DNA from: an uncultured bacterium
Lineage (GTDB): Bacteria; Muiribacteriota; Ozemobacteria; Ozemobacterales; Ozemobacteraceae
Assembly: GCA_964472075.1 (NCBI GenBank)
Contig: CAYYIY010000001.1
Coordinates: forward strand, 295-64,294
Direction: 5' to 3'
DNA length: 64,000 bases
Shown here: positions 1-49,193 of the stretch, piece after piece
How positions within the stretch are numbered: position 1 is the stretch's first letter
Layout of the letters: each line of letters opens with the position of its first letter
Made by a program: the position numbers and the translations under genes
The notes under the pieces: model-generated
Seen by the model: only the letters and a program-made list of their open reading frames with translations
What the model was told of the DNA's origin: nothing
Database searches by the model: none

Positions 1-1042
1 CCTCGCCGCCCATTCCCATCGGCTCATGGTGTACCAAGCCCGGCTCGAGCAGATCCGCCAGCACCTTCTCGAAAAAGCCGGTGAGAGACGCATCATTTCG
101 GGTCGAGGGATACCCGCGCTGAATCTGCAGGCGATAATCGCCGCCCAGCGATCGACTGACGGAGAGAGCGGCGCGCACTTCGTCGATCAGAGCCTCTCGC
201 ACTGTCGGGTTGAAGCTGCGCAGCGTGCCCTCCAGATGAACCTCGGCAGGCAGAATGTTGTTCGCGGTACCGCCATGGATCTGCCCAAGACTGACGACGG
301 CCGGTTCGAGGGGATTGATGCGCCGACTCACAATAGCGTACAAGGCACTGAGAACCGGAACAAGCATCCACAGAGGGTCGCGACCATCGTGAGGATACGC
401 GCCGTGACCGCCCTGAGCGGTGATCGTCGCCCGAAACGTATCGACGGCGGCACTGTATGGACCCGGCTGCACGCGCACATAGCCGAGAGGCCGAGTGGCG
501 TCGACGTGCAGTCCGAAGATGGCGGATACTTCAGCGAGAGCGCCGTCGGCGATCATGCGGGGAGCGCCGCTCAAGCCTTCGGCATCCTGATGTTCCTCGG
601 CCGGTTGAAAAAGCACGCGAACCCTGCCGGGCAGCGCCTGCTCACGGTGTCGATCGGCGAGCAGACGCGCGGCGCCGAGAGCCATCGCGATGTGCGCATC
701 ATGTCCGCACGCGTGCATGACATTCGGCACCGTCGACGCATACGAACGGCTGCGTTCCTCCTGAATCGGCAGAGCATCCATATCGGCGCGGAGAGCCACG
801 AGGCGCCCACTGGAGGGGCCGATATCCACACAGACGCCGGTTTTTCCCACACCGGATCTGACGGCATTGATGCCCCAACCCTTGAGGGTCTTCACGATGA
901 GCGCGGCGGTCTGCACCTCCTGAAAGGCGATTTCCGGGTAGGCGTGGAAGCTGCGTCTCAAGGCAATCAATTCTTCCGCAAGCGCTTCGGCACGAACCAG
1001 AGGCTGGGGCAGGGCGGTGGTGTTCGCAGGTTTCGGGGTCAT
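1..1042 (-). CDS. M20 family amidohydrolase/peptidase (hippurate hydrolase/YxeP-like); 3' end lies beyond window start
   Basis: Manual translation of the minus frame from the ATG at 1040-1042 gives MTPKPANTTALPQPLVRAEALAEELIALRRSFHAYPEIAFQE...VPNVMHACGHDAHIAMALGAARLL...PGRVRVLFQPAEE.... No stop occurs before position 1, which is why it is absent from the ORF track. The start overlaps the stop of the upstream gene by 4 nt. Confidence 0.8.
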   Translation of the reverse strand, partial: MTPKPANTTALPQPLVRAEALAEELIALRRSFHAYPEIAFQEVQTAALIVKTLKGWGINAVRSGVGKTGVCVDIGPSSGRLVALRADMDALPIQEERSRSYASTVPNVMHACGHDAHIAMALGAARLLADRHREQALPGRVRVLFQPAEEHQDAEGLSGAPRMIADGALAEVSAIFGLHVDATRPLGYVRVQPGPYSAAVDTFRATITAQGGHGAYPHDGRDPLWMLVPVLSALYAIVSRRINPLEPAVVSLGQIHGGTANNILPAEVHLEGTLRSFNPTVREALIDEVRAALSVSRSLGGDYRLQIQRGYPSTRNDASLTGFFEKVLADLLEPGLVHHEPMGMGGE

Positions 1043-2127
1043 GATCGCTCCTCTCGTTTTCGCAGGGCCGGCAGACGATGAATCTGCAGGTATACGCCGT
1101 CATACTGCCTCAGCTCGGGGTATCGGCGCAAGGTTTCAGCCTTCAGCCGCTCATAGACCGCCGGGTTCCAGATGCGGCGACCGGTGCGAAAGAGCGACCG
1201 GCGACCCCCTACTCCCGACTTGAAGCGCAGCAGGGAATTATCGGCGGACGAATCGCTGCCGCCCCCCAGATGCAGATATCTGATCCCGGGTGTCCGGCAC
1301 GCCGTCTGTATCAATTCGCTGAACAGCAGATTGTTCGGGCGCAGGTTTAGCAGATCGGCGTCTGAAGCTCCGAGGTGATAATGGAGAAAGGGCGGCGACT
1401 CAAAACAGAGGGCGGCTGCGGCAATGCGATCGCCTGAACGAACCACAAACAACCGCGGCTTCAGCGACGGTGATGTTAATGCGTCCCAGTATGCCTCCTT
1501 GAAATAGTATATGGGATCTGCATGTAATCGATCCATGGTTGTGAGGTAGAGTTGTCTGAACTCCTGCCGATAGTCGGCATACGACCGTTCGGAAAACGTC
1601 AGCCCCGCCTGTCGCGCCACCCTGATACCGCGGCGAAAGGCCGAGGACATCGGTTCGTCGGCCGAAGGCCCGCTTTCGTCCGAGTTGGTGACGCAGGAAA
1701 CCCAGACGGTCTGACGATCAACGTTGATGCGATACTGCGCGTCGGTCACGAAGCGGGCATTGTCGAGCAGCGGGTGAAAGCGAATGAATTCACTGACCAC
1801 TCCACTTTTTTCGGCCCAGGCGGCAAAAGCCCGCCAGGCGGCGTCGAGAAACTCTCGATCTTCGGTATTGGCAAGCGGCCCGCCGTATCCATACGGCGTT
1901 TCAAGGTCGACTCCGTCGCTGCCATCGATGGCGTGTACCAGAAAGCTGTGCAGAAATACCTTGTCTGATGAGCGATACACGAACACGGTCGGGCGGCCCT
2001 GAGTCTCGGCCTGCCACGATCGAAACCAGGCATATTCCCAATACACATCCCAGGGGAGCGGAGGTGTTGCCGCGGGAGGCCCGTCGGCCCACGACTCACA
2101 GATCAGCGGGTTGCCGTGATGATCCAA
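1039..2127 (-). CDS. FemAB/CelD-like GNAT-fold acyltransferase (BioF2-like N-acyltransferase family)
   Basis: A 362-aa ORF with a C-terminal LHLGGGSDSSADNSLLRFKSGVGG motif typical of the FemAB/Acetyltransf_6 family. It overlaps the downstream M20 gene by 4 nt and the upstream methyltransferase by 25 nt. Confidence 0.6.
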   Translation of the reverse strand: MDHHGNPLICESWADGPPAATPPLPWDVYWEYAWFRSWQAETQGRPTVFVYRSSDKVFLHSFLVHAIDGSDGVDLETPYGYGGPLANTEDREFLDAAWRAFAAWAEKSGVVSEFIRFHPLLDNARFVTDAQYRINVDRQTVWVSCVTNSDESGPSADEPMSSAFRRGIRVARQAGLTFSERSYADYRQEFRQLYLTTMDRLHADPIYYFKEAYWDALTSPSLKPRLFVVRSGDRIAAAALCFESPPFLHYHLGASDADLLNLRPNNLLFSELIQTACRTPGIRYLHLGGGSDSSADNSLLRFKSGVGGRRSLFRTGRRIWNPAVYERLKAETLRRYPELRQYDGVYLQIHRLPALRKREERS

Positions 2128-2774
2128 TGTCGAACCTCGTGAGTACGATTTTCGTATGTCCGAGTGCTCATCTCGAGAGAGTAGCTTTCGAAGGGCGTCA
2201 GCAATTCTCGTATTTCATCTTCGATGGCAAAATGCGTGATTCCCTCACCCGCATACGGGCCGGCGGAAATGTCGGTGTATGTCCGGGGTTCGATCTGACG
2301 CCCGAGCCCATCACCCCATGAGCCGTGTGCCAGCATCATCGAGAAGAATCTCCCGCCTGGTCTAAGAACTCGATGAATCTCGTAAAAGATGGCTCGCATC
2401 GAAGCCATGCGGTTTTGCTGAATAGCCGCGATATCGATCACGCCGTCAAACGATGCGGTTTTCAACGGCAGATGAAGGAGATCGGTCTGCGCCCAGGTTC
2501 CAGACAGCCGTTCGGCGGTTAACCGTTCGTGCGCCAGCTGCAGTGCTGTGGGCGAACCGTCGATGCCGGTGACGGAAAAGCCTTCACGAGCAAGATACCA
2601 GCAGCAGGAACCCGGCCCGCAGCCGGCATCGAGCAGTCTTACCGCTTTGCGATCGGGAGCGCGATAGAAAGAGCGGGCAACAAAGCGAATCAGTTCTTCC
2701 GGTGGATACTTTCCCCATGCACGAGTCCGAAAGATTTCTTCCCAGACCGGGTCCCAGCTGGTGTGAGCCATCAT
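2103..2774 (-). CDS. class I SAM-dependent methyltransferase
   Basis: A 223-aa ORF with the SAM-binding motif LLDAGCGPGSCCWYLAREGFSVTGIDGS and a post-I acidic residue. Its ATG overlaps the intI stop (ATGA). Confidence 0.8.
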   Translation of the reverse strand: MMAHTSWDPVWEEIFRTRAWGKYPPEELIRFVARSFYRAPDRKAVRLLDAGCGPGSCCWYLAREGFSVTGIDGSPTALQLAHERLTAERLSGTWAQTDLLHLPLKTASFDGVIDIAAIQQNRMASMRAIFYEIHRVLRPGGRFFSMMLAHGSWGDGLGRQIEPRTYTDISAGPYAGEGITHFAIEDEIRELLTPFESYSLEMSTRTYENRTHEVRHWIITATR

Positions 2775-4222
2775 CGGTCACCAGCCTTCGGCGACTTGCC
2801 GACTCGAGCGGGCCGAACGGGCAACGAGCGAGAGGCAGCCCGACTGCCGAGCACAGGCCTGGTCTGAAGCGGCGGGATTCCGGGCAGATCGAGCGGACTG
2901 ATGACCGTGACTCCGGGGCGTTTGAGCACATGGGTGTAGATCATGGTCGTGCTGACATCTGAGTGACCAAGGAGTTCCTGAACAGTGCGGATATCGTGCC
3001 CATGTTCGAGCAGATGGGTGGCAAACGAGTGACGCAGCGTGTGAACACTGGTCGTCGCCGGCAGACCGGCTGCATGAACCGCCGCTTTCACGGCTTTCTG
3101 AAGCGAGTTTTCATGAACATGGTGACGACGGATTTTACGCGATCGCGGGTCAGGTGAAAGTTTCGACGAGGGGAACACATACTGCCACTGGATATCGCGT
3201 GATGCGGACCTGTACTTTCTGTCAAGCGTATCGGGCAGAGCGACCTCGCCGTAGCCGAGTTTCAGATCCTGCTCATGAAGAGAACGCACGCGTTCGATCT
3301 GTTCGGCCAGTGCACGTTCGAGCGTGCGCGGCAAGGGCACCACTCGGTCTTTTCCGCCTCTTCCCTCTCGGACGATGATCTGATGTTGCTGGAAATCAAC
3401 ATCCTTGATACGCAGACGCAGACATTCCATGAGTCGCATGCCGGTTCCGTAGATCAGTTCAGCCATGAGGCGCGGAGTGCCGTCGAGGTGGTCGAGCAGA
3501 TCTCGCACCTGTTCCCGGGTCAGAACCGCCGGAATTCGCTGGGGCACCTTGGCGCGGACAATTCCGTCAAGTGAGCCCGGAGGAAGCTGCAGTACATGTT
3601 GATAAAGAAAAAGCAGCGCATGCATTGCCTGATTCTGCGTGCTTGAACTCACTTTTGCCTTGAGCGCGAGATGCGTGAGAAACGCCTGAATGTCGCCCTC
3701 GCTCAGATCGAGCGGCAAACGCGGGTGATGGAAGGCAAAGAATCTCGCCGCCCAACTGAGGTAAGCCTTTTCGGTTCGAATGGAGTAGTGTCGCACGCGC
3801 ACTTCGTTGCACAATCGGCTCATGGCCGCCTTCACATCGACAGGACAAGCCGTGGCAGTCAAAGCACCCGTTGTTTTTCCTGCAAGGTCGGTGCGCGCTT
3901 CATCGACAGACGGTCTCTGCGGCCAGTGTTTCGCCCAATCAGCCCGCAATACCTCCTGGAACAACACTCGCAAGGTCATGTCAGCCTGTTCGATCTGCCA
4001 TGGTTGAATGCGATGATTGCCGATCAATCGATCGAGAAACGTGAGAATGTGTCGACTCTTCACCTGCGGTAACGGAATTCCGTGCAGAAACCGGCCGAAC
4101 TGCACCGCCCAGTTGAGGCAAAAATCAATCTGCTTTTCCGGCACTTTCCGATGCCGCAACGTCTCGCCGAGTGCCTGCAACACTCGCTCATCAAACACCG
4201 AGCCGTTTTCCATGTTGCTCAA
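2771..4222 (-). CDS. intI: integron integrase (IntI family tyrosine recombinase) with duplicated N-terminal core-binding domain
   Basis: A 483-aa ORF. The C-terminal 340 aa align by eye to IntI1, including the IntI-specific insert (LPDTLDRKY...IQWQYVFPSSKLSPDPRSRKIRRHHVHE) and catalytic boxes (LRHSFATHLL, GHDIRTVQELLGHSDVSTTMIYTHVL). The extra N-terminal 140 aa repeat the SAM-like core-binding fold. Confidence 0.9.
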   Translation of the reverse strand: MSNMENGSVFDERVLQALGETLRHRKVPEKQIDFCLNWAVQFGRFLHGIPLPQVKSRHILTFLDRLIGNHRIQPWQIEQADMTLRVLFQEVLRADWAKHWPQRPSVDEARTDLAGKTTGALTATACPVDVKAAMSRLCNEVRVRHYSIRTEKAYLSWAARFFAFHHPRLPLDLSEGDIQAFLTHLALKAKVSSSTQNQAMHALLFLYQHVLQLPPGSLDGIVRAKVPQRIPAVLTREQVRDLLDHLDGTPRLMAELIYGTGMRLMECLRLRIKDVDFQQHQIIVREGRGGKDRVVPLPRTLERALAEQIERVRSLHEQDLKLGYGEVALPDTLDRKYRSASRDIQWQYVFPSSKLSPDPRSRKIRRHHVHENSLQKAVKAAVHAAGLPATTSVHTLRHSFATHLLEHGHDIRTVQELLGHSDVSTTMIYTHVLKRPGVTVISPLDLPGIPPLQTRPVLGSRAASRSLPVRPARVGKSPKAGDR

Positions 4223-4610
4223 TTCTCACTCATGGATTAACGTGTCTCTACACAGGGAGGGCCGGAAAGTCGCCATGCGGAGCACCTCAAACAACCCAAC
4301 GTTCTATGCATAACAGATTATGCAGAAACGCGTCAACCCCTTCCCTGCATTTCCCAATAAGCAACAATATGCATAACAGCTCATTATGGCAGAAAACCAA
4401 AGGGCAAATTGAGGGCAGAAATTTAGGTCCAAATACCAAATGAAAGCCAAATTTGCGAACAACAGAGCTATAACAAAGCCTTTCAGCGGAACGCGGGGCC
4501 TGGGCACATGCCTTGCGGACGCAACGCGTGCGCCCAAAACGGCCCCGTTCCCTCGCTTCGCTCGGCGTCCGCAGATGGCATTACACCGAGCAGAGAAAGC
4601 CTGAACCAAA
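4223..4610. promoter_or_regulatory. candidate attI/Pc region of the integron (low-GC, repeat-containing spacer between intI and the first gene)
   Basis: Location is immediately 5' of intI. The segment is AT-richer than its flanks. It contains direct repeats of tatgcataacag (4305-4316 and 4368-4379) and a GC-rich block at 4491-4572 with interleaved inverted repeats. No canonical GTTRRRY core could be identified by eye. Confidence 0.3.
4304..4392. repeat. pair of 22-26 bp direct repeats (ctatgcataacagattatgcag / atatgcataacagctcattatggcag), 63 bp apart
   Basis: Read directly from the sequence. Coordinates were anchored on the codons of the overlapping frame-shadow ORF 4171..4443. Confidence 0.6.
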
Positions 4611-5405
4611 ATGAATCTGAAGCTCCCTCCGACTCTTTCAAAGATTGCAACAAATTTCCGCGTTGTGCGTGACAGAATGGGAATGTCCCCTGCCAAGGTC
4701 TACAGACTAACCAATGGCCATGACACATTGTTTTTAAAGATTTCCGATTCTCGCTACGATGGGACGACATACGATGTTCAGCGAGAAATGAATACCATGC
4801 TTTGGCTCAAAGGGAAATTGCCGGTTCCTGAGGTCATTCATTTTGAAGAGCATGAAGGCCGTAAATATCTGCTCATGTCAGCAGCGCATGGGATCCTGTT
4901 ATCTCAAGAAAACGAAATCTTTAAAAATCCAAACCGTGCAATTCAATACTTTGCGCAAGGGATACACTTGTTACAATCAATCGATGTTTCAAAGTGCCCT
5001 TACGACAACTGCGTAAAGAACAGGCTGGCCGAATTACACTTCCTCATGTCCCATGACCTGGCCGATGTAGACGTCACCCACTGGGAAAGTGACACACCAT
5101 TTCAGGATCCAGATGCTCTGTTTCGCTTTCTTAACGAGAATGTTCCCCCTGAAGAATTTGTTCTTTCTCATGGAGATTTTGGAGATAGTAACCTTTTCGT
5201 CGAGAATGGCCGGGTTTCAGGAATAATTGATCTTGGCAGGACCGGCAAAGCCGACAAGTGGTGTGATATTGCATTTTGTGTTCGGGCGCTACGGACCGAT
5301 TTTGGTGCGGATGAAAAACTCATAAACGTTTTCTTCCAGGAGATCGACATTCCCCCAAACTGGGATCGAATGAAATACTACATCCTGCTGGATGAGCTGT
5401 TCTAA
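4611..5405 (+). CDS. aph(3'): aminoglycoside 3'-phosphotransferase, APH(3')-III-like (kanamycin/neomycin resistance family)
   Basis: A 264-aa ORF that is end-to-end collinear with APH(3')-IIIa: GMSPAKVYRL, DSRYDGTTYDVQREMNTMLWLKGKLPVPEV, DVSKCPYDN, HGDFGDSNLFVENGRVSGIIDLGRTGKADKWCDIAFCVRALRTDFG and the C-terminal KYYILLDELF. GC content is about 40% against about 60% in flanking genes. Confidence 0.9.
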   Translation: MNLKLPPTLSKIATNFRVVRDRMGMSPAKVYRLTNGHDTLFLKISDSRYDGTTYDVQREMNTMLWLKGKLPVPEVIHFEEHEGRKYLLMSAAHGILLSQENEIFKNPNRAIQYFAQGIHLLQSIDVSKCPYDNCVKNRLAELHFLMSHDLADVDVTHWESDTPFQDPDALFRFLNENVPPEEFVLSHGDFGDSNLFVENGRVSGIIDLGRTGKADKWCDIAFCVRALRTDFGADEKLINVFFQEIDIPPNWDRMKYYILLDELF

Positions 5406-5474
5406 CTTTCATTCCCGGAGTCGTGACAAAACACTTGATTTCGACCTCTCGTTCTGCTAAACTGATCAAACAAT

Positions 5475-5561
5475 GCCCGGGTGGTGAAATTGGCAAACAC
5501 GTAAGATTCAGGATCTTATGCCTACTACTGGCTTGCGGGTTCAAGTCCCGCCCTGGGCACC
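5475..5561 (+). tRNA. tRNA-Leu (anticodon CAG), class II with long variable arm
   Basis: Folded by hand. The acceptor stem GCCCGGG pairs with CCTGGGC (one G-T wobble). The D-arm GTG/CAC carries AATTGGCAAA. The anticodon stem TAAGA/TCTTA has loop TTCAGGA, giving anticodon CAG. There is a 16-nt variable arm, a T-arm GCGGG-TTCAAGT-CCCGC and discriminator A at 5559. It closely parallels E. coli tRNA-Leu(CAG). Confidence 0.85.
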
Positions 5562-5564
5562 CAG

Positions 5565-5593
5565 ACGACCCTTTCGAGGGTCGTTTTCGTTTT
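5565..5593 (+). terminator. rho-independent terminator after tRNA-Leu
   Basis: A 7-bp stem ACGACCC/GGGTCGT with loop TTTCGA is followed by TTTTCGTTTT. Confidence 0.55.
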
Positions 5594-5677
5594 AGACGGT
5601 TTTTCACGCGACGACAAACTTTCGTCGATTTATCTGGTAGAATAGAGAAGTAAACTCTGCGGTATGGAGGATAGAGT

Positions 5678-6706
5678 ATGAAGCTCCCCGTCGCGAAAGT
5701 CATCGTGCTTCTGCTGTCGTTCACGGCTCTGGCTTCGATGGCGCCCATGTTCGCTCAGGGTACAAACCCCTACGGCGATTCAAACCTCGGAACGATCACG
5801 ACCGGCACGCAAGGGACAACCGGAACTGCGGCCACATCAGGCGCAGCGACAGGGCTGACACAGGTCACCCGCACCGTGACCGCCTGGGTACGGAACGATC
5901 TGGCGAAGGTCGACGGCAAGGTGGTGGTCATCGCACGCGACAGCGTGAATCTGCGCAGCGGGCCGGGCACCAACTTCGAAATCATTCAGGCGGCGAATGC
6001 CGGGGCCAGGTTCACCCTCCAGGGCGAGCAGAACGGTTGGTACAAGATCGCCATCGTCACCACCGAGCCGGCGCCTGTTTCAGAGCCGAAGTCCGTCGAC
6101 GAAGCGCAGGCCAACTTTCTGCAGGCATACAAGAAATACACCGAATCGACGCTCGCGAACGGGCGCAGTCATCCGACGAGTCAGGCGGCCCTGAAGGGCT
6201 TTCGGTCGACGTATGCCACATACAAGCAGTTTACCCGCGAATCGAAGGCACTCGCCGACATTCGGGCCAAACGCCGTCAGGTCGACAAGGTCGTCGTCAG
6301 CAAAGCCTCTTTCACCGCCACGGTGTATTCGAACGGCGAAGTCGTGCGGGTCTTTCCGATCGCCTACGGCTCGAACCCTGACGGACTCAACAAACAGAAG
6401 CAAGGCGACTGCCGCACGCCCGAAGGCTCGTTCCAGATCGTCGGCAAGGCGGTGAATCCCCCTTATCGCGGCATCCCGGGGCAGGTCATTCCCGGCGGCG
6501 CTCCGAATAATCCGTTCGGCACCCGCTTCATGGCGCTGAACACCTGGGGCGGAAGCATCGGCATGCACGGTACTTCCAACCCCAACTCGATCGGCAGTCG
6601 TGCATCACACGGCTGTATGCGCATGTTCACCGAAGACGCTGAAGAGCTGTACGATCTGGTCAAAGTCGGCACGCCGGTGATCATCAAGCCGGTCAAGGAA
6701 GGCTGA
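5678..6706 (+). CDS. L,D-transpeptidase (YkuD domain) with SH3b domain, secreted
   Basis: A signal peptide is followed by a Thr/Gly-rich linker. The SH3b-like segment reads VNLRSGPGTNFEIIQAANAGARFTLQGEQNGWYKI. The catalytic motif reads SHGCMRM. An RBS GGAGG lies upstream. Confidence 0.85.
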   Translation: MKLPVAKVIVLLLSFTALASMAPMFAQGTNPYGDSNLGTITTGTQGTTGTAATSGAATGLTQVTRTVTAWVRNDLAKVDGKVVVIARDSVNLRSGPGTNFEIIQAANAGARFTLQGEQNGWYKIAIVTTEPAPVSEPKSVDEAQANFLQAYKKYTESTLANGRSHPTSQAALKGFRSTYATYKQFTRESKALADIRAKRRQVDKVVVSKASFTATVYSNGEVVRVFPIAYGSNPDGLNKQKQGDCRTPEGSFQIVGKAVNPPYRGIPGQVIPGGAPNNPFGTRFMALNTWGGSIGMHGTSNPNSIGSRASHGCMRMFTEDAEELYDLVKVGTPVIIKPVKEG

Positions 6707-27050: not shown

Positions 27051-29860
27051 ACACACGCCGATCGATTCCTGATCTTCCCTTTCTGGCGCTCTGCGGCTGT
27101 CTGCTGGTAACGGTTCTCGTCGGGCAGTCCTGGTTGTCCGATCAGGCCGAACGGATTCGCGCCGAATGGCTCGATGAAGAGAAGGCCGGCCTGCGTCGCA
27201 TTCTGCAAAACACACTGCGTCTCAGTTCGTCTCAGACCTGTTTTCCTGAACTCATGCGTCGGACAATCGCCGATCTGAAGTCGGGGATGCCGGTCGCCGA
27301 AAGCTTTCGTCGGTTCATCCCCTGGTCGCACACGCCATTCGAGCTGCTCGTCTTCGGCCCAGAGGGACGCCGCCTGCAGATCCCTGGTTTTCGTCATGAG
27401 CGTGGGGCGATTTCGGAAAAAGTGCTGCGCTCGCTGCGCGATCCGTCTCCGACATCGACGACGGCAATTCGCAAGCTCTCGGCGAGCTTTCTCGGCATGC
27501 GGACCGCACTGGAAAAAATGGCCCAAAGCCCAGGTGCCATGGTTGAGCTGGGGGGTTCCATCCGCTTCGCCTACGCGGGGTGGTGGTCGCTCAGGGATGA
27601 ACTGAACCGAACGGCCGCATCCACCAGACCAGGGGCGAATGCCGAGGGGAAGGTCACCGATGTACTGCTTCTGGTGCCGCGCCAGGGGTTCGAGCAAAAT
27701 CGTCTTCTCCGTTTCAGCATCAAACGGACGAGACGGCTGCTGCGAGGGAACGCCCGACTCGATCTCGTGCGACGAACCGAACAGTCGGATCGGGTTACCA
27801 GCGCCCCCTTTCACGATCGCACGGTTCACCTTGATGTTCGCCTTGCCTGCAATGAGCTTCTCGATCTGCGCATTCGTCGAAAAGTATTTGTACCGGCCGC
27901 CACCGCACGGCTCATGAACGTCATCGTCTCGGCGCGCCTGACGCTTCTTCTCGGCGGCCTGCTGCTGCTCGCGTTCGGATTTCGACTGTATCGACCTGCC
28001 GCCGCCGAGAAGCTCTCGCTCGGTCGATTGATCAGGCTGGGCATTCTCGGCTGCGTCATTCCCGCTCTTGCCCTATTTCTGACCTGGACGTTCGACTTTC
28101 TCACCACCTCGAGCCGAACCATGAGTCGGCAGATGCATCGGTATCTCGAACAGGAGCTGGAGCGCATCGATCGAGAGAGTAACCGCGATCGACAGAAGCT
28201 CGACGTCCGACTGAACCAGTTGGGTGAACGACTGCATGGAACGCCCATCGACCGTGCCGTCCAAACGGCACAAGAGGAGCTGGCCGACTGCCCGCAGATC
28301 GAGTCTGCCTATTTGATCGACCCCTACGGCGTGATTCTGGCGGTTCTGCGACGGCACCAGAATGCGCACGAGGTTCAGCGCGTGTTCGCGCTATCGATTG
28401 CGGTGAACATGACGGCATTACTGGAGAATCGCGAGCCGAAATCCATTTGCCGTGAAAGCTATGATCTCACCTACATGAAGGGCTTCACACGCCATCTTCT
28501 GGAGAACCTCGGTCGTACCGACGAACTTGCCGGGCTGGGCATGCGACGCAGCGTCTTTGTGAAGATGATTCGCGGTGAGACGGCAACGGCTCGCTCGCGT
28601 TTTCTCGTCGTGCTGATGAACCTTGATGACTTGAAAAAGCAGTATGTACACACCTGTCTGGCAGATCGTTCTCGCACTTTTCAACTGGGACTGGCTGAGA
28701 CCGGTCTGGCCGGACCCAGCCGCGGGTATCCGGATCGTCTGCTCTGGAACCCCGACCTGATCAGCCTCATCGAAGAGGCGTATCGTCTGCGTCACACCGT
28801 CAACATGCGCCTGACCTTGCCGGGACGCGGAACGTTTCTCGCTTCCGCCGTTCCCGGCAAGCAATTGACCGGATATGTACTGCTCGGGGCCGTTCCGTTC
28901 AAACCGATTGAACGTCAGATCAGGTCCTGGCTGGGGACCGCCGTTTTCACGCTTTTCGGCGTCGTTCTGTTCGGTGCCGGCGCGGCATATGCTCTCGCCT
29001 CTTACATGCGTTCCGGGCTTTCTCGTCTCGAAGACGGCTTGTACCGTCTACAGAACCGACAGTTTCAACTGACCCCCATCGATGCTGATGATCAGTTAAC
29101 CAGCATTTTCAACGGCATGGTCACCGCGGGTCGTACCTTCGACGAGCTCTATGCTGCCGCGCCGGTGCAGAAAACCCTGATCTTCGAAAGATCGATGCGA
29201 AAAGCCGGATGGCAGATCGAATGTGATTTTCAACCCGGCCCGTTTCTCGGCGGCGATTACGCCGATGTTCTCGAGTTGCCTGACGGTCGAGTGCTGTTCT
29301 GCATCGGAGATGCGGGCAGCAGCTCTCTGGCCGCGGTTCTTCTGGCTGCCCGGGTGAAGATGGCGATTTCTCTGCTGGCCGAAGATGCCGTTTCACCGGA
29401 ACACATTCTGCAACAACTCAACGAGTTGCTGCTCACCATGCGGGTCAAACGCCGTCACATGAGTCTGCTGATCGGCGTCGCCTCTGCCGACGGGCAAATC
29501 GTTCTGGTCAACGCGGGGCATTGCTGGCCTCTCATCGGCAGTTTCCGCGACCTGCAATGGATCGAAGAGCGCGGTCTGCCGCTGGGAACACGCCTGCGTC
29601 GGCCGGTTCAGGCACTGAAGGTTCGATTATCAGATGAAGAACGGCTGATCTGCTGCACGAACGGCTGGGTCAGGCGTTTTGATCCGGAGTTGCTCGGACT
29701 GGGATTCGAACGATGGCGCCAGGAAGTGAAAAACGGACTTTCTCTCAATCAGGCACCGTTGGTACGACACCTGGACGGCGTCTCGTCACTCCTGCCGCCT
29801 CCACCTGAAGGGGTTCAAGGGCGCGTGTTGCTGACGGTGCAGCGGGAGAAAACCGCATGA
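27047..29860 (+). CDS. membrane-anchored sensor protein with C-terminal PP2C/SpoIIE-type phosphatase domain (RsbU-like), variant metal-site motif
   Basis: A 937-aa ORF with a signal/TM segment, large extracytoplasmic and cytoplasmic sensor regions and two further TM helices. The C-terminal PP2C-like region reads CIGDAGSSSLAAVLL where GDVSGHG is expected. Confidence 0.75.
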   Translation: MNTRRSIPDLPFLALCGCLLVTVLVGQSWLSDQAERIRAEWLDEEKAGLRRILQNTLRLSSSQTCFPELMRRTIADLKSGMPVAESFRRFIPWSHTPFELLVFGPEGRRLQIPGFRHERGAISEKVLRSLRDPSPTSTTAIRKLSASFLGMRTALEKMAQSPGAMVELGGSIRFAYAGWWSLRDELNRTAASTRPGANAEGKVTDVLLLVPRQGFEQNRLLRFSIKRTRRLLRGNARLDLVRRTEQSDRVTSAPFHDRTVHLDVRLACNELLDLRIRRKVFVPAATARLMNVIVSARLTLLLGGLLLLAFGFRLYRPAAAEKLSLGRLIRLGILGCVIPALALFLTWTFDFLTTSSRTMSRQMHRYLEQELERIDRESNRDRQKLDVRLNQLGERLHGTPIDRAVQTAQEELADCPQIESAYLIDPYGVILAVLRRHQNAHEVQRVFALSIAVNMTALLENREPKSICRESYDLTYMKGFTRHLLENLGRTDELAGLGMRRSVFVKMIRGETATARSRFLVVLMNLDDLKKQYVHTCLADRSRTFQLGLAETGLAGPSRGYPDRLLWNPDLISLIEEAYRLRHTVNMRLTLPGRGTFLASAVPGKQLTGYVLLGAVPFKPIERQIRSWLGTAVFTLFGVVLFGAGAAYALASYMRSGLSRLEDGLYRLQNRQFQLTPIDADDQLTSIFNGMVTAGRTFDELYAAAPVQKTLIFERSMRKAGWQIECDFQPGPFLGGDYADVLELPDGRVLFCIGDAGSSSLAAVLLAARVKMAISLLAEDAVSPEHILQQLNELLLTMRVKRRHMSLLIGVASADGQIVLVNAGHCWPLIGSFRDLQWIEERGLPLGTRLRRPVQALKVRLSDEERLICCTNGWVRRFDPELLGLGFERWRQEVKNGLSLNQAPLVRHLDGVSSLLPPPPEGVQGRVLLTVQREKTA

Positions 29861-46049: not shown

Positions 46050-47897
46050 TCAGCCGACCGTCGGCGGCAGATCGTACAGGATGTCATCCCACGGATGGCG
46101 ATACAGCGGCGCCTTCAGGCGCACCTGATCCATGTAATGACCGATGAAGCCGATGGTGCGTCCGAGAACGAACAGCCCGTTCAAGCCGCCGCTGTCGACC
46201 ACTTCCTTGATTCTCTTTTCGTCCCAGCCGACACCGTACATCATGTCGACCGAGAGCACACCGATGCAGCCGTCGACGTTGAGAATCAAGGTGTCTTTCT
46301 TCGCGGTGGTCAGCTTTTCGACCTCGAGAGCGTAGTCGAGAAGCGGGGTCTTCGGGAAATACTTCGACGCGAATTCCTTGAGCAGTACCACGCGCATGTC
46401 GGGGTTCTTCAGACTCTTCACGCGATGACCGATACCGGGAATCTTCTGATTGGATTTCTTCATGGCCGACATGAACTCGCTCGGACTGAGCCCCTTGTCG
46501 CGAGCCGCCTTGAACTGCAGCGCGGCATCAGCAACGGCACCACCGAAGCGAGGGCCGATGGTCAGAATTCCCGAGGCGACGGCACTCATCAGATCTTTAC
46601 CGGCTCGGGCACAGACGATGGCGTTATGCGCGCCTGAGACGCAGGGGCCGTGATCAGCGCAGAGCTTGAGGACGATCTCCATGAACTTCGTCGCCCAGCC
46701 GGGCAGCTTTTCCTTGAACCAGAGCAGTGAAATCACGTCGCCAACCCCGTATTCTTCCTTGATGACCTTGCTGATCTTGTGACCGGCATAGACCAGTTCG
46801 TCACCTGAATCATCGGAAATTGTACAAGTGAAGTTCGACTCACGGCGCACCAGATTGCGTGCCACCGCCTCCTTGAAGTTCATTGGAATCGGGGGGGCCT
46901 CGACATCGGCGATGGGCTTATGCTTGCCCTTCTTGACCAGACCGTCGAAGGTTTCCTTGATCGCCTTGTCGAACTCATCGAACGAGTTCGGCACCACGAC
47001 CCCCACTTCGCGCAGTGCCTTGTTCTTGGCCTCGGCGGTTTCGCGGCCGGCATCAGCCTTCGCGCCGGCATGACCGAACTGAATGCCCTTCGGCATGTAT
47101 TTGATCGAAGTACCCGTAACCCACATCACCAGAGGTTTCTTGATCTTTCCGCTCTTGACGGCGTCGTGAATCCGCCATTCTTCTTCGCCGCCGACTTCGC
47201 CGAGACACACCAGCATCTTGATGGCCGGGTTGGCTTCATACCGCAGCAGATGCTCGAGCAGGTTCGAGCCTGCATAGGCGTCACCGCCGATGGCGATGCC
47301 TTCGTAGACGCCGTCGGTATTGCGGGCGATGATGTTGTAAGCTTCGTTCGACATGCCGCCCGACTTGCTGACGAACCCGACGGAACCCGGTCGATGCAAC
47401 TTGGAGCTGATGATGTTGTCGATCGTACCGCCGGTATTTCCAACCTTGAACTGGCCGGCCACGATGCCGCCGACCGTCGCCGGGCCGATGATCCACTTGC
47501 CCTTCTTCAAAGCCACCGCACGCATATGCCGGGAGAAGCGTTCCGGAATACCCTCCGCAATGACGACCACGGTCTTCAACTGCGGCTGTTCAAGCGCCTG
47601 CAGCGTCGTTTCATACGCGCTGCGGAACGACGCGAAGTTGATCATGGCGTCGATATCGGGGTTTTCTTCGCAAGCAGAGGCAATGTCAGGGTAAATCGGA
47701 ATGAACACTTCTTTTTTGCCGTAGAAGCATTTGTGCATTTCGCGGCGACCCGGGTCGACGATAGCGGCGACCGAAGGCTTGTCACGCTTGCAGCAGTAAT
47801 CGAAATCGAGCATGCGCTGCACCGCATTGGTCTGCATGCCGAAAATGATGGCGCGGGTGTTGCGGTCCAACAGCACGTATTCTGGTCGTTTGGTCAT
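46050..47897 (-). CDS. aclA: ATP-citrate lyase alpha (large) subunit: CoA-binding/phosphohistidine + citrate synthase-like domain
   Basis: A 615-aa ORF with GQFKVGNTGGTIDNI, SKSGGMSNE and GHAGA (phosphohistidine loop) motifs, and a C-terminal citrate-synthase-like region with HGPCVSGAHN. Confidence 0.9.
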   Translation of the reverse strand: MTKRPEYVLLDRNTRAIIFGMQTNAVQRMLDFDYCCKRDKPSVAAIVDPGRREMHKCFYGKKEVFIPIYPDIASACEENPDIDAMINFASFRSAYETTLQALEQPQLKTVVVIAEGIPERFSRHMRAVALKKGKWIIGPATVGGIVAGQFKVGNTGGTIDNIISSKLHRPGSVGFVSKSGGMSNEAYNIIARNTDGVYEGIAIGGDAYAGSNLLEHLLRYEANPAIKMLVCLGEVGGEEEWRIHDAVKSGKIKKPLVMWVTGTSIKYMPKGIQFGHAGAKADAGRETAEAKNKALREVGVVVPNSFDEFDKAIKETFDGLVKKGKHKPIADVEAPPIPMNFKEAVARNLVRRESNFTCTISDDSGDELVYAGHKISKVIKEEYGVGDVISLLWFKEKLPGWATKFMEIVLKLCADHGPCVSGAHNAIVCARAGKDLMSAVASGILTIGPRFGGAVADAALQFKAARDKGLSPSEFMSAMKKSNQKIPGIGHRVKSLKNPDMRVVLLKEFASKYFPKTPLLDYALEVEKLTTAKKDTLILNVDGCIGVLSVDMMYGVGWDEKRIKEVVDSGGLNGLFVLGRTIGFIGHYMDQVRLKAPLYRHPWDDILYDLPPTVG

Positions 47898-47915
47898 GGC
47901 TGTTTTCCCCTTTCC

Positions 47916-49193
47916 TTACTGTTCCAGCGCATCGCGGACGATGCGAGTCATGTGATACTCAGGCCCGTGAACCTGAATCGGCAGTCCCAGTTCCTCGGCC
48001 GCGGCCTTGATCTTGGCCAGGCCCTGATGATAGTTCGGGCCGCCACGGCGCACGAAGATGTGGGTATTCACCTTCTTCAGCCTGGCGGCATATTCCTTCA
48101 GGGCCATGATGATGCCCGTAAAGGTGTTGGCCACGTCGGTGAAGTTGGCAATGCCGCCGCCGATCAGCAGGTTTTTGGGGCGTCCCTGCGGATCGGGTTT
48201 GCGGGTCATCAGATCGAAGACGACCTTGGCATATTCGTACGTCAGCTGCGTCGACGGGTCGCCGGAGTATTCGCCATAGAACGCCAGTTCTTTGGCGGCG
48301 CCGAGATCGCAGACCGTGTCCGCAAAAATGACCGAAGCCCCGCCGCCTGCCACCATGTTCCAGATGCGGCCTTCAGGGTTAAGCAGCGTCAATTTCAGTG
48401 AAGCGCCTGACAGTGAATCCAGCTCTCGCACCCGCTCTTCTTCAGGGCTGAGCGTGCGACCGAACGCCGCCGGAAACTCCATGTCGTCACCCCAGAATTC
48501 CTTACAGCAGAATTCCGCGGTGTCATCAAGCTTCGCGACCATATCGAGTGGTACGATGTCTTTTCCGGCGATCGCGAACGGATTGATTTCCAGATAGGCA
48601 AAATGCATCGCCGCGAAGTATTTGTACAAGCCGGTCAGGAAGTCAGCGACGAGCGACTTGTTCTCGCCCAGCTGCTTCGGCAGCTGTTTTTCAAGGTTAA
48701 CAGCCTCGATGCCTTCGAGAATCGGAACCTGGATCTGAACGACTTTGTCCCAGTTCTCTTCGACGTTGATGCCCCCCTCGAGCGAGAAGTACATGACATC
48801 ACCCTCAGCCTGAGTCTTGATGGCGATGTAGTATTCCGCCTCGTGTTTCACGAACGGTTCGATCAGAAAATGCGTGAGCGTGCCGGTGATCTCGCCGACC
48901 TTGGTGCTCTTGCCCATGCGCTCGTCGATCCAGGCGCGGGTCTCTTCGAGGTTCTTGTTGGCGTAAATCAACCCGTGTTTGCCGCGCTTGCCGAAGAGCT
49001 GATCAGGCTTGGCGACGAGCTGTTCTTTCTTCAGCCAGGGGTTGTCCTTGACCAGGGTTTTCCAGTCAGTGTCTGCATCCACCAGCACGATTTTGCCGTC
49101 ATATCCGATGGACTTCCCGAGATAGGTGGGAAGGTGACGGGCCATCATGCGCTTCGCGTGATACTCACGAATGCCGCGTTGTGCCATGTTCAA
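47916..49193 (-). CDS. aclB: ATP-citrate lyase beta (small) subunit: ATP-grasp/citrate-binding
   Basis: A 425-aa ORF with a succinyl-CoA-synthetase-beta-like ATP-grasp N-terminus. It sits 18 nt upstream of aclA. Confidence 0.9.
   Translation of the reverse strand: MNMAQRGIREYHAKRMMARHLPTYLGKSIGYDGKIVLVDADTDWKTLVKDNPWLKKEQLVAKPDQLFGKRGKHGLIYANKNLEETRAWIDERMGKSTKVGEITGTLTHFLIEPFVKHEAEYYIAIKTQAEGDVMYFSLEGGINVEENWDKVVQIQVPILEGIEAVNLEKQLPKQLGENKSLVADFLTGLYKYFAAMHFAYLEINPFAIAGKDIVPLDMVAKLDDTAEFCCKEFWGDDMEFPAAFGRTLSPEEERVRELDSLSGASLKLTLLNPEGRIWNMVAGGGASVIFADTVCDLGAAKELAFYGEYSGDPSTQLTYEYAKVVFDLMTRKPDPQGRPKNLLIGGGIANFTDVANTFTGIIMALKEYAARLKKVNTHIFVRRGGPNYHQGLAKIKAAAEELGLPIQVHGPEYHMTRIVRDALEQ

Follow-up and report, generated by a model that had tools for sequence, protein, structure and literature searches.

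An attC-less APH(3')-family kinase gene, likely acquired horizontally, beside a long-form integron integrase in a Riflebacteria-like chromosome

The kanamycin, neomycin and amikacin kinase APH(3')-IIIa (aphA-3; structures 1J7I and 1L8T) occurs in Enterococcus, Staphylococcus and Campylobacter, and its gene is carried on Firmicutes plasmids or transposons. Two other members of the family, aphA15 (APH(3')-XV) and aphA16, are integron cassettes that confer kanamycin resistance (PMC11721406). Both are true cassettes with an attC site and belong to mobile class 1 integrons. An integron integrase gene (intI) may also stand without any recognisable attC, a configuration termed In0; a survey of complete genomes counted 51 such cases among 215 intI loci (Cury et al. 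2016, IntegronFinder, PMC4889954). Here we describe a chromosomal locus that bears some likeness to each of these systems. It lies in a 64,000-nt stretch of an uncultured, Ozemobacteraceae-related bacterium (contig CAYYIY010000001.1, positions 295 to 64,294; hereafter the window, to which coordinates refer unless a contig is named), where an APH(3')-family gene, aph, is found next to an intI gene. We consider the best overall explanation, with a probability of roughly 0.6, to be an imported and intact APH(3') kinase gene that lacks an attC and stands beside an In0-type, probably weakened integrase.

The enzyme family of the aph product is clear. The protein passes the NCBIfam family model NF033068 (239.7 bits against a cut-off of 205) and contains the Pfam APH domain PF01636 (93.7 against 23.2 bits). 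Its best match among solved structures is APH(3')-IIIa, 1j7i, over the full length (residues 3–264, E = 1e-100), which bears out the initial annotation of this DNA as encoding an APH(3')-III-like kinase. The two proteins are collinear and equal in length, and BLASTP aligns them with 146 identities in 263 positions (56% identity, 76% similarity, one 1-residue gap) rather than at the 60–65% identity first estimated. The alignment keeps the Gly-rich nucleotide-binding loop (GMSPAKVY), the Lys of LFLK, the Glu of QRE, the HGDxGDSN motif (here HGDFGDSN), IDLGR, and a C-terminal LLDELF whose DELF is common to both enzymes. Positions 44, 60, 190, 195 and 208 and the C-terminal Phe are identical in the two proteins; in APH(3')-IIIa these are K44, E60, D190, N195, D208 and the F264 carboxylate, which we take to be its nucleotide-binding and catalytic elements (1J7I/1L8T). 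Across 91 homologues, 75 columns reach 90% conservation or more; the aph protein agrees at 68 of them, and the seven departures are all conservative (Y/F, F/L, I/L, L/I, D/N, K/R and I/M). By these marks the gene looks intact and appears to have been kept under purifying selection. Its product would be an ATP-dependent aminoglycoside 3'-O-phosphotransferase, an intact and deep-branching relative of APH(3')-IIIa. Within the substrate range that we infer, its likeliest activity is phosphorylation at the 3'-hydroxyl of kanamycin- and neomycin-class aminoglycosides, which would shield the cell from these drugs.

We searched 5.8 billion protein clusters for homologues and found the exact aph protein once; the next-best match is 56% identical. 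The named relatives come from Anaerolineales and other Chloroflexota, Chloracidobacterium (Acidobacteriota), Clostridium (Bacillota) and Marinilabiliaceae (Bacteroidota), and they include clinical Staphylococcus and Campylobacter alleles. The host lineage, Riflebacteria, is absent from the named homologues in the 120 matches listed. A neighbour-joining tree of 92 full-length homologues places the aph protein outside the APH(3')-IIIa clade, loosely with a few relatives of 43–49% identity; the proteins around APH(3')-IIIa are 65–86% identical to that enzyme, and none of them exceeds 56% identity to the aph protein. It also falls short of the NCBIfam APH(3')-IIIa allele model NF033064 (341.7 bits, cut-off 530). 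The AphA16 model is its second-best at 240.2 bits, and the protein lies far under the aphA15 and aphA16 allele cut-offs of 580 and 550 bits. Under usual naming practice the product would be a new APH(3') type. The only DNA-level relatives on plasmids are copies of aph(3')-IIIa itself (68–69% identity over part of the gene), a gene of almost the same guanine-plus-cytosine (GC) content (44.9%, against 45.0% for aph) that differs in its Firmicutes plasmid or transposon setting. An identity of 56% is too distant, and the origin of aph(3')-IIIa is therefore not identified here. The neighbourhoods of the closest APH homologues are ordinary chromosomal or Firmicutes-type mobile-element settings (HAD/EamA; a serine-recombinase/TnpV element; ABC-F/CPT; GntR/ThuA), with no integron context at any of the loci examined.

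Composition sets aph apart from the DNA around it. The window has 56.5% GC and its 33 other open reading frames (ORFs) average 57.4% (s.d. 2.4), so the surroundings are less GC-rich than the roughly 60% first given for them. The aph ORF has z = −5.1, and its GC content at third codon positions (GC3) is 0.479 against 0.664 (s.d. 0.048, z = −3.85), the minimum of 34 ORFs. GC at the first and second codon positions is low as well (z about −2) in this Lys-, Asp-, Glu-, Ile- and Phe-rich protein. The initial annotation had proposed GC and codon-usage profiles as a check; the outlier is evident in GC and GC3, and in codon-usage likelihood aph departs only slightly from the other ORFs (z = −1.9). A low-GC island of about 40% had been drawn from 4223 to 5474. 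The aph ORF is indeed an outlier, but the figure is too low, since 4223–5677 has 47.1% GC and only single 80-bp windows drop to 34–39%. The intergenic flanks, at 51% (4223–4610, within which the 120 bp of 4481–4600 reach 66%) and 48% (5406–5677), fall inside the 44–58% range of the other intergenic regions in the window, and the island is therefore essentially the 0.8-kb aph ORF.

GC3 is the cleaner signal of foreign origin. A homologue in a host of similar GC (L091, 56%) has a GC3 of 0.615, a contrast that fits a less ameliorated, foreign aph. Because aph is a compositional outlier whose named relatives lie in other phyla, with none of the host lineage, we think it likely that the gene was acquired horizontally, and transfer into this Riflebacteria-like (Ozemobacteraceae-related) chromosome is its most likely mode of entry. 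The initial annotation had spoken of a recent acquisition. The horizontal part of that proposal stands on GC3 and on relatives from other phyla; 'recent' is weakly supported, because the donor is not known (best relative 56%) and part of the GC deficit comes from amino-acid composition. That the host is most likely Riflebacteria-like is judged from one gene family together with local synteny: ldt (L,D-transpeptidase, 5678–6706) has its best named homologues, of 48–58% identity, in Candidatus Ozemobacteraceae and Riflebacteria metagenome-assembled genomes (MAGs), and the ldt–TPR gene pair is syntenic at three loci of ldt relatives. Two of these relatives (L082, L084) have neither tRNA-Leu nor intI upstream of ldt. 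On the other side of aph, a Logan contig with an identical copy of the methyltransferase gene that follows intI spans only 1,052 bp.

The initial annotation had also placed aph where the first cassette of an integron would be, 5' of intI and on the opposite strand, and the geometry is as described: the two genes are divergent, aph faces away from intI as a cassette would, and their starts lie 388 bp apart. Since aphA15 and aphA16 show that APH(3') cassettes exist, a cassette is reasonable in principle, and an attC was sought in several ways. A consensus scan for RYYYAAC...GTTRRRY pairs, 45–160 nt apart and required to pair and fold, found four sites in the whole window, all within coding regions. 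When relaxed over 4150–5750, it gave only candidates inside intI, across the aph start codon or across the tRNA, at chance level. Non-integron control loci set off this crude scan too, roughly twice in every 20 kb, and for that reason we built a covariance model (R1) from 19 attC sites in cassette arrays beside other integron integrases, mostly proteobacterial. Outside its training set the model recovered 66 attC sites, spread over 26 integron loci and with few exceptions on the strand that the orientation of intI predicts, and it called no attC in two non-integron loci. Run on the 64-kb window with filters off, R1 had its best hit at E = 0.16, in a coding region at 27771, and none in 4223–5700 at E <= 10, which answers the attC covariance search that had been suggested for this locus. 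Folding of 5396–5480 was no better than that of shuffled sequences (z = +0.9 and +1.2 on the two strands).

The right-hand junction gives the same answer. Only one metagenome contig shares the tRNA-Leu and its promoter, a Joint Genome Institute (JGI) contig, L100, with an identical tRNA-Leu. Homology to it is limited to 5426–5561 of the window (89% over 136 bp), and its 48 bp upstream of the tRNA are about 75% identical, including TTGATT, the 17-nt spacer and TAAACT. The homology begins at 5426, 20 bp past the aph stop; native DNA resumes there, and no room is therefore left for a normal attC of at least 55 bp. Upstream, L100 encodes an unrelated 163-residue protein (1058–1549 of that contig; cyclic-nucleotide-binding-like by eye) that has no counterpart in the window, and gene order upstream of this tRNA is therefore not conserved in the group.

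On this evidence aph is unlikely to be a present-day cassette. The single-cassette integron proposed in the initial annotation is not supported, given the absence of an attC by consensus scan, R1 and folding, the 20 bp to native promoter homology, and an Arg in place of the catalytic Lys of the integrase; its fallback, a non-cassette insertion, fits the lack of an attC better. The likeness to aphA15 and aphA16 extends to an APH(3')-family gene beside an integron integrase, but aph has no detectable attC and the integrase is a distant, chromosomal long form. Judged by its sequence the locus is an In0: its intI scores above the integron-integrase profile cut-off, and neither the 4 kb to each side of it nor the rest of the 64 kb yielded an attC. 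It differs from In0 as described in that its 480-residue integrase is of the long form, has an additional SAM-like domain at the N terminus and bears the Arg substitution, and in that an apparently foreign, resistance-type gene occupies the place of the first cassette.

The tRNA downstream of aph had been pointed to as a classic insertion hotspot, and we found nothing to uphold this. Islands integrate on the 3' side of a tRNA gene, and aph is found 5' of tRNA-Leu, on its promoter side; the 3' 26-mer of the tRNA has no second copy in the 64 kb with up to 3 mismatches; and the only recombinase nearby is of the integron type. A tRNA-targeted genomic island is not supported on these grounds. Nor is there a signature of an insertion sequence or a miniature inverted-repeat transposable element, the repeats bracketing aph being only 74–79% matches of 14–23 nt that we judged to be chance. 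The aph gene and the tRNA are not separated by a terminator, so that transcripts of aph would run on into the tRNA: transcription would start in the 388-bp intI–aph spacer and continue through the tRNA to the terminator-like hairpin behind it.

The intI product is an integron integrase, at 447.8 bits against TIGR02249 (cut-off 265) and E = 3e-85 against VchIntIA (2a3v), and the insert typical of IntI proteins is present as DPRSRKIRRHH. Two Phage_int_SAM_4 stretches are recognised by Pfam, the second such domain lying in an extension that adds about 130 residues at the N terminus. The same long form is seen in more than 100 homologues of 437–484 residues, several of the named ones from Nitrospirota, and we know of no described function for the extension. 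A scan of species-representative genomes with this IntI found nothing closer than 57%.

Of 122 columns with a conservation of 90% or more, the protein agrees at 117. Among its five exceptions is the first Lys of GKGGK, a Lys in 113 of 113 homologues, which is an Arg here (GRGGK). The codon, AGA at 3359–3361 on the minus strand, is one transition from AAA, and the residue aligns with K160 of VchIntIA. Of the catalytic set R, K, H, R, H and Y, the integrase thus has R, H, R, H and Y, with Arg in place of the β2–β3 Lys. This is the β2–β3 general-acid lysine of tyrosine recombinases. The corresponding K201R variant of Cre has weak activity in vivo and none measurable in vitro, and a drop of about 100-fold in cleavage is expected from Lys-to-Arg (PMC2943603). 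Because the catalytic Lys is replaced as in Cre K201R, we regard the integrase as probably attenuated, or catalytically weakened, which fits a static locus. The substitution may also be a consensus error of the MAG.

At 2771–2774 the stop codon of intI runs into the beginning of a gene for an S-adenosylmethionine-dependent methyltransferase, and this gene in turn overlaps a GNAT/FemAB-like ORF (1039–2127, minus strand), so that 1039–2774 looks like an operon of intI, methyltransferase and acyltransferase genes. An ORF of 122 residues likewise overlaps the end of intI in the closest IntI relative, L094.

This relative and L096, at 53–54% identity, have cassette-like small genes that face away from intI, with local repeats at their junctions. 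In L094 about 110 bp following GTTA are duplicated, beside intI (1–107) and some 3.2 kb away (about 3250–3357). In L096 a 27-mer, ATTGAAGAGCGTTAAnAAGTGCGTCG, follows both cassette-like genes (625–760, 1–80), and the sister contig L097 ends exactly at CTGTTA. R1 found nothing in L094 or L096, and the L096 spacer is unfolded. From these sequences, the long-form IntI clade may use atypical att sites. The intI-proximal region of the window contains 17-nt direct repeats, TATGCATAACAG(A/C)T(T/C)AT, at 4305–4321 and 4368–4384 (repeat family D5), together with a 15-mer, CTGCATTTCCCAATA (4345–4359), that is identical to one lying 47–61 bp upstream of the L094 intI; the motif TATGCAGAA is also common to both regions. 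When set against L094, L096 and L097 this region matches only loosely, and it shows no GTT core that would correspond to the CTG|TTA crossover of these relatives; an attI there is at most putative. The sequences of attI are not conserved between integron classes.

The leader of aph as a whole (4395–4625) folds with z = −3.0, and it contains a GC-rich hairpin (z = −2.1 for the top strand, −3.0 for the bottom) whose sequence recurs neither elsewhere in the window nor in any fetched locus. We considered this hairpin as an attC and discarded it: an unpaired central spacer is missing, the boxes are a poor fit to the consensus, and R1 gives no match at E <= 10. Rfam recognises the tRNA alone in 3900–6000 at E <= 10, and thus no known RNA in the leader. 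A sigma-70 scan found no promoter on the plus strand upstream of aph, a result that is uninformative for the host phylum. A 9-codon mini-ORF, MALHRAEKA (4575–4604, plus strand), ends 6 nt before the aph ATG and may easily be chance; it recalls the short ORFs in attI1 that help to translate cassettes. The aph gene itself has no obvious Shine–Dalgarno sequence.

Several observations weigh against an imported, attC-less gene beside a weakened integrase. The aph gene has exactly the position and orientation of a first cassette, and the region around its stop codon (5340–5430) folds with z = −2.3 and −2.9 into a stem-loop that spans the stop. R1 missed Balneolaceae-type sites that the crude scan found at two loci (L025, L033), and its blank result at L094 and L096, despite their cassette-like genes, means that an atypical att site of this clade could be missed. 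Among tyrosine recombinases, 3.8% naturally have an Arg where the catalytic Lys would be (PMC2943603). Roughly half of the aph GC deficit falls at codon positions 1 and 2, where it reflects amino-acid composition. Low GC is also partly intrinsic to the family: APH(3')-III-like genes have 43.5–47.7% GC and are GC-poorer than their flanks at four of five loci in unrelated hosts (L086, L087, L088, L091 and L092; for example, 43.5% against 49.7% at L086 and 47.7% against 56.3% at L091). No close relative of the genome was at hand to show an empty site: the nearest ldt relative, 85% identical, is on a short Logan contig (L081) whose sequence starts only 45 bp upstream of ldt, and a look-up of the aph protein itself, made to the same end, came back empty. 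Finally, Thr stands in the aph protein where APH(3')-IIIa has E157 and E230, presumably acidic contacts to the aminoglycoside, and the substrate range may therefore differ from that of APH(3')-IIIa.

Foremost among the alternatives, though in our view unlikely, is a former cassette that has become fixed. The aph gene would have entered attI by attI x attC recombination, with the integrase taking part in the transfer; its attC would later have been truncated by a deletion or rearrangement that placed the tRNA-Leu promoter beside it, and the integrase would have decayed by the Lys-to-Arg change. Such a history accounts for the place and direction of aph, for foreign-looking DNA so compact that it is essentially the ORF alone, and for the motifs common to the intI-proximal regions of the closest IntI relatives. 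It is also in line with an R''-like heptamer, TTCTAAC (5400–5406), that overlaps the aph stop within the stem-loop there. The stem-loop itself was rejected as a canonical attC, being too short and devoid of AAC/GTT boxes; together with the heptamer it may be the remnant of a truncated attC, or chance, and a heptamer matching at six of seven positions arises easily by chance at a TAA stop. No attC half can be recognised with confidence, the attI-like region has no GTT crossover core, the leader of 225–388 bp is long for a cassette, and the contexts of the homologues examined include no integron. A more specific form of this history, which we hold to be somewhat less probable again, is that a chromosomal integron of the little-studied long-form IntI clade in a candidate phylum captured aph at attI and then fixed it by loss of the attC and by blunting of the integrase through Lys-to-Arg. 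If true, the locus would be a natural case of an integron cassette domesticated into a permanent chromosomal gene, and its enzyme would define an APH(3') subclass of its own, the sister group of the clinically important APH(3')-III lineage of unknown origin.

It is improbable that aph is instead a native, vertically inherited kinase, with a low GC that follows from the composition of the protein, a coincidental adjacency to intI, and a natural substrate that may not be a clinical aminoglycoside. The GC-poor state of APH(3')-III-like genes in other hosts, the mild codon-usage deviation, the deep and isolated branch with no identifiable donor, and the change at two presumably substrate-binding acidic residues would all agree with such an origin. 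A GC3 that is the lowest of 34 ORFs and well below the 0.615 of the homologue in a 56%-GC host speaks against it, as do the lack of Riflebacteria among the named homologues in the listed matches and L100, which shares the tRNA and its promoter but has another gene upstream.

We give still less credence to a true single-cassette integron whose attC, of an atypical AT-rich or weakly structured type peculiar to the long-form IntI clade, was overlooked. The failure of R1 at L094 and L096 as well, where small genes face away from intI and junction repeats are present, leaves room for such sites, and the end of the L097 contig at precisely CTGTTA may be read in the same sense. Here, only 20 bp separate the aph stop from the promoter homologous to L100, the aph–tRNA spacer is unstructured, neither the L096 27-mer nor the L094 junction sequence has a match in the intergenic regions of the window, and the catalytic Lys of the integrase is replaced. 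An assembly or binning artefact that joined the aph segment at the conserved tRNA or integron is very improbable: one NCBI contig alone, of 241,639 bp, carries these proteins, the lineage is uncultured and the contigs of relatives do break at such places (L081 45 bp before ldt, L097–L099 at attI), but both flanks are host-like at 57–61% GC with only the 0.8-kb ORF deviating, where a chimeric join normally shifts one side only, and the ldt–TPR synteny on the right matches the lineage.

Table 1. Features of the intI–aph–tRNA-Leu locus, in window coordinates.
Feature	Position	Strand	Basis or description
intI, integron integrase, long form	2771–4222 (database version starts at 4213, 480 residues)	−	TIGR02249 and 2a3v matches
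intI-proximal region with possible promoter, operator or attI motifs	4223–4395		Direct repeats and 15-mer
GC-rich imperfect hairpin in aph leader	4485–4557		66% GC, GGAAC...GTTCC at base
aph, APH(3')-family aminoglycoside 3'-O-phosphotransferase gene	4611–5405	+	264 residues; profile, structure and alignment matches
Stem-loop around aph stop	5368–5414		8-bp perfect inverted repeat GAATGAAA / TTTCATTC bracketing the last 10 codons and the stop
Native tRNA-Leu promoter region	5426–5473	+	−35 TTGATT (5435–5440), 17-nt spacer, −10 TAAACT (5458–5463); our reading of conserved hexamers
tRNA-Leu(CAG)	5474–5563	+	ARAGORN; Rfam RF00005, 56.2 bits; 68 bp past aph stop
Terminator-like hairpin and T-run	5563–5586	+	First such site downstream of aph

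Two other parts of the window deserve mention. ATP-citrate-lyase-like genes occupy 46050–49193 on the minus strand, as a 615-residue fusion (succinyl-CoA-ligase-alpha-like and citryl-CoA-lyase-like) followed by a 425-residue partner. In a Riflebacteria-like genome they hint at a reductive tricarboxylic acid cycle; these genes alone are insufficient to establish the environmental autotroph that the initial annotation took the host to be. Between 9067 and 42167 there is an unusually dense run of large PAS-domain hybrid histidine kinases and response regulators, with at least seven ORFs of 580–1227 residues.

Returning to the imported, attC-less kinase gene that we prefer, the finding concerns both resistance genes and integrons. 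Divergent homologues of resistance genes are common in environmental genomes. With no attC, no transposase and a weakened integrase active site, there is no sign that aph can be mobilised now, and the immediate risk is therefore low. Integron specialists may value the long-form integrases, their apparently atypical att sites and a natural variant of the catalytic Lys above the aph gene itself. For the APH(3') family, the locus puts an APH(3')-III-type gene in a candidate phylum that is only distantly related to Firmicutes and Campylobacter, the hosts in which aph(3')-IIIa is a clinical problem. If functional, aph would add a deep-branching member to the APH(3')-III group, of use to resistome catalogues and for rooting the APH(3')-III tree.

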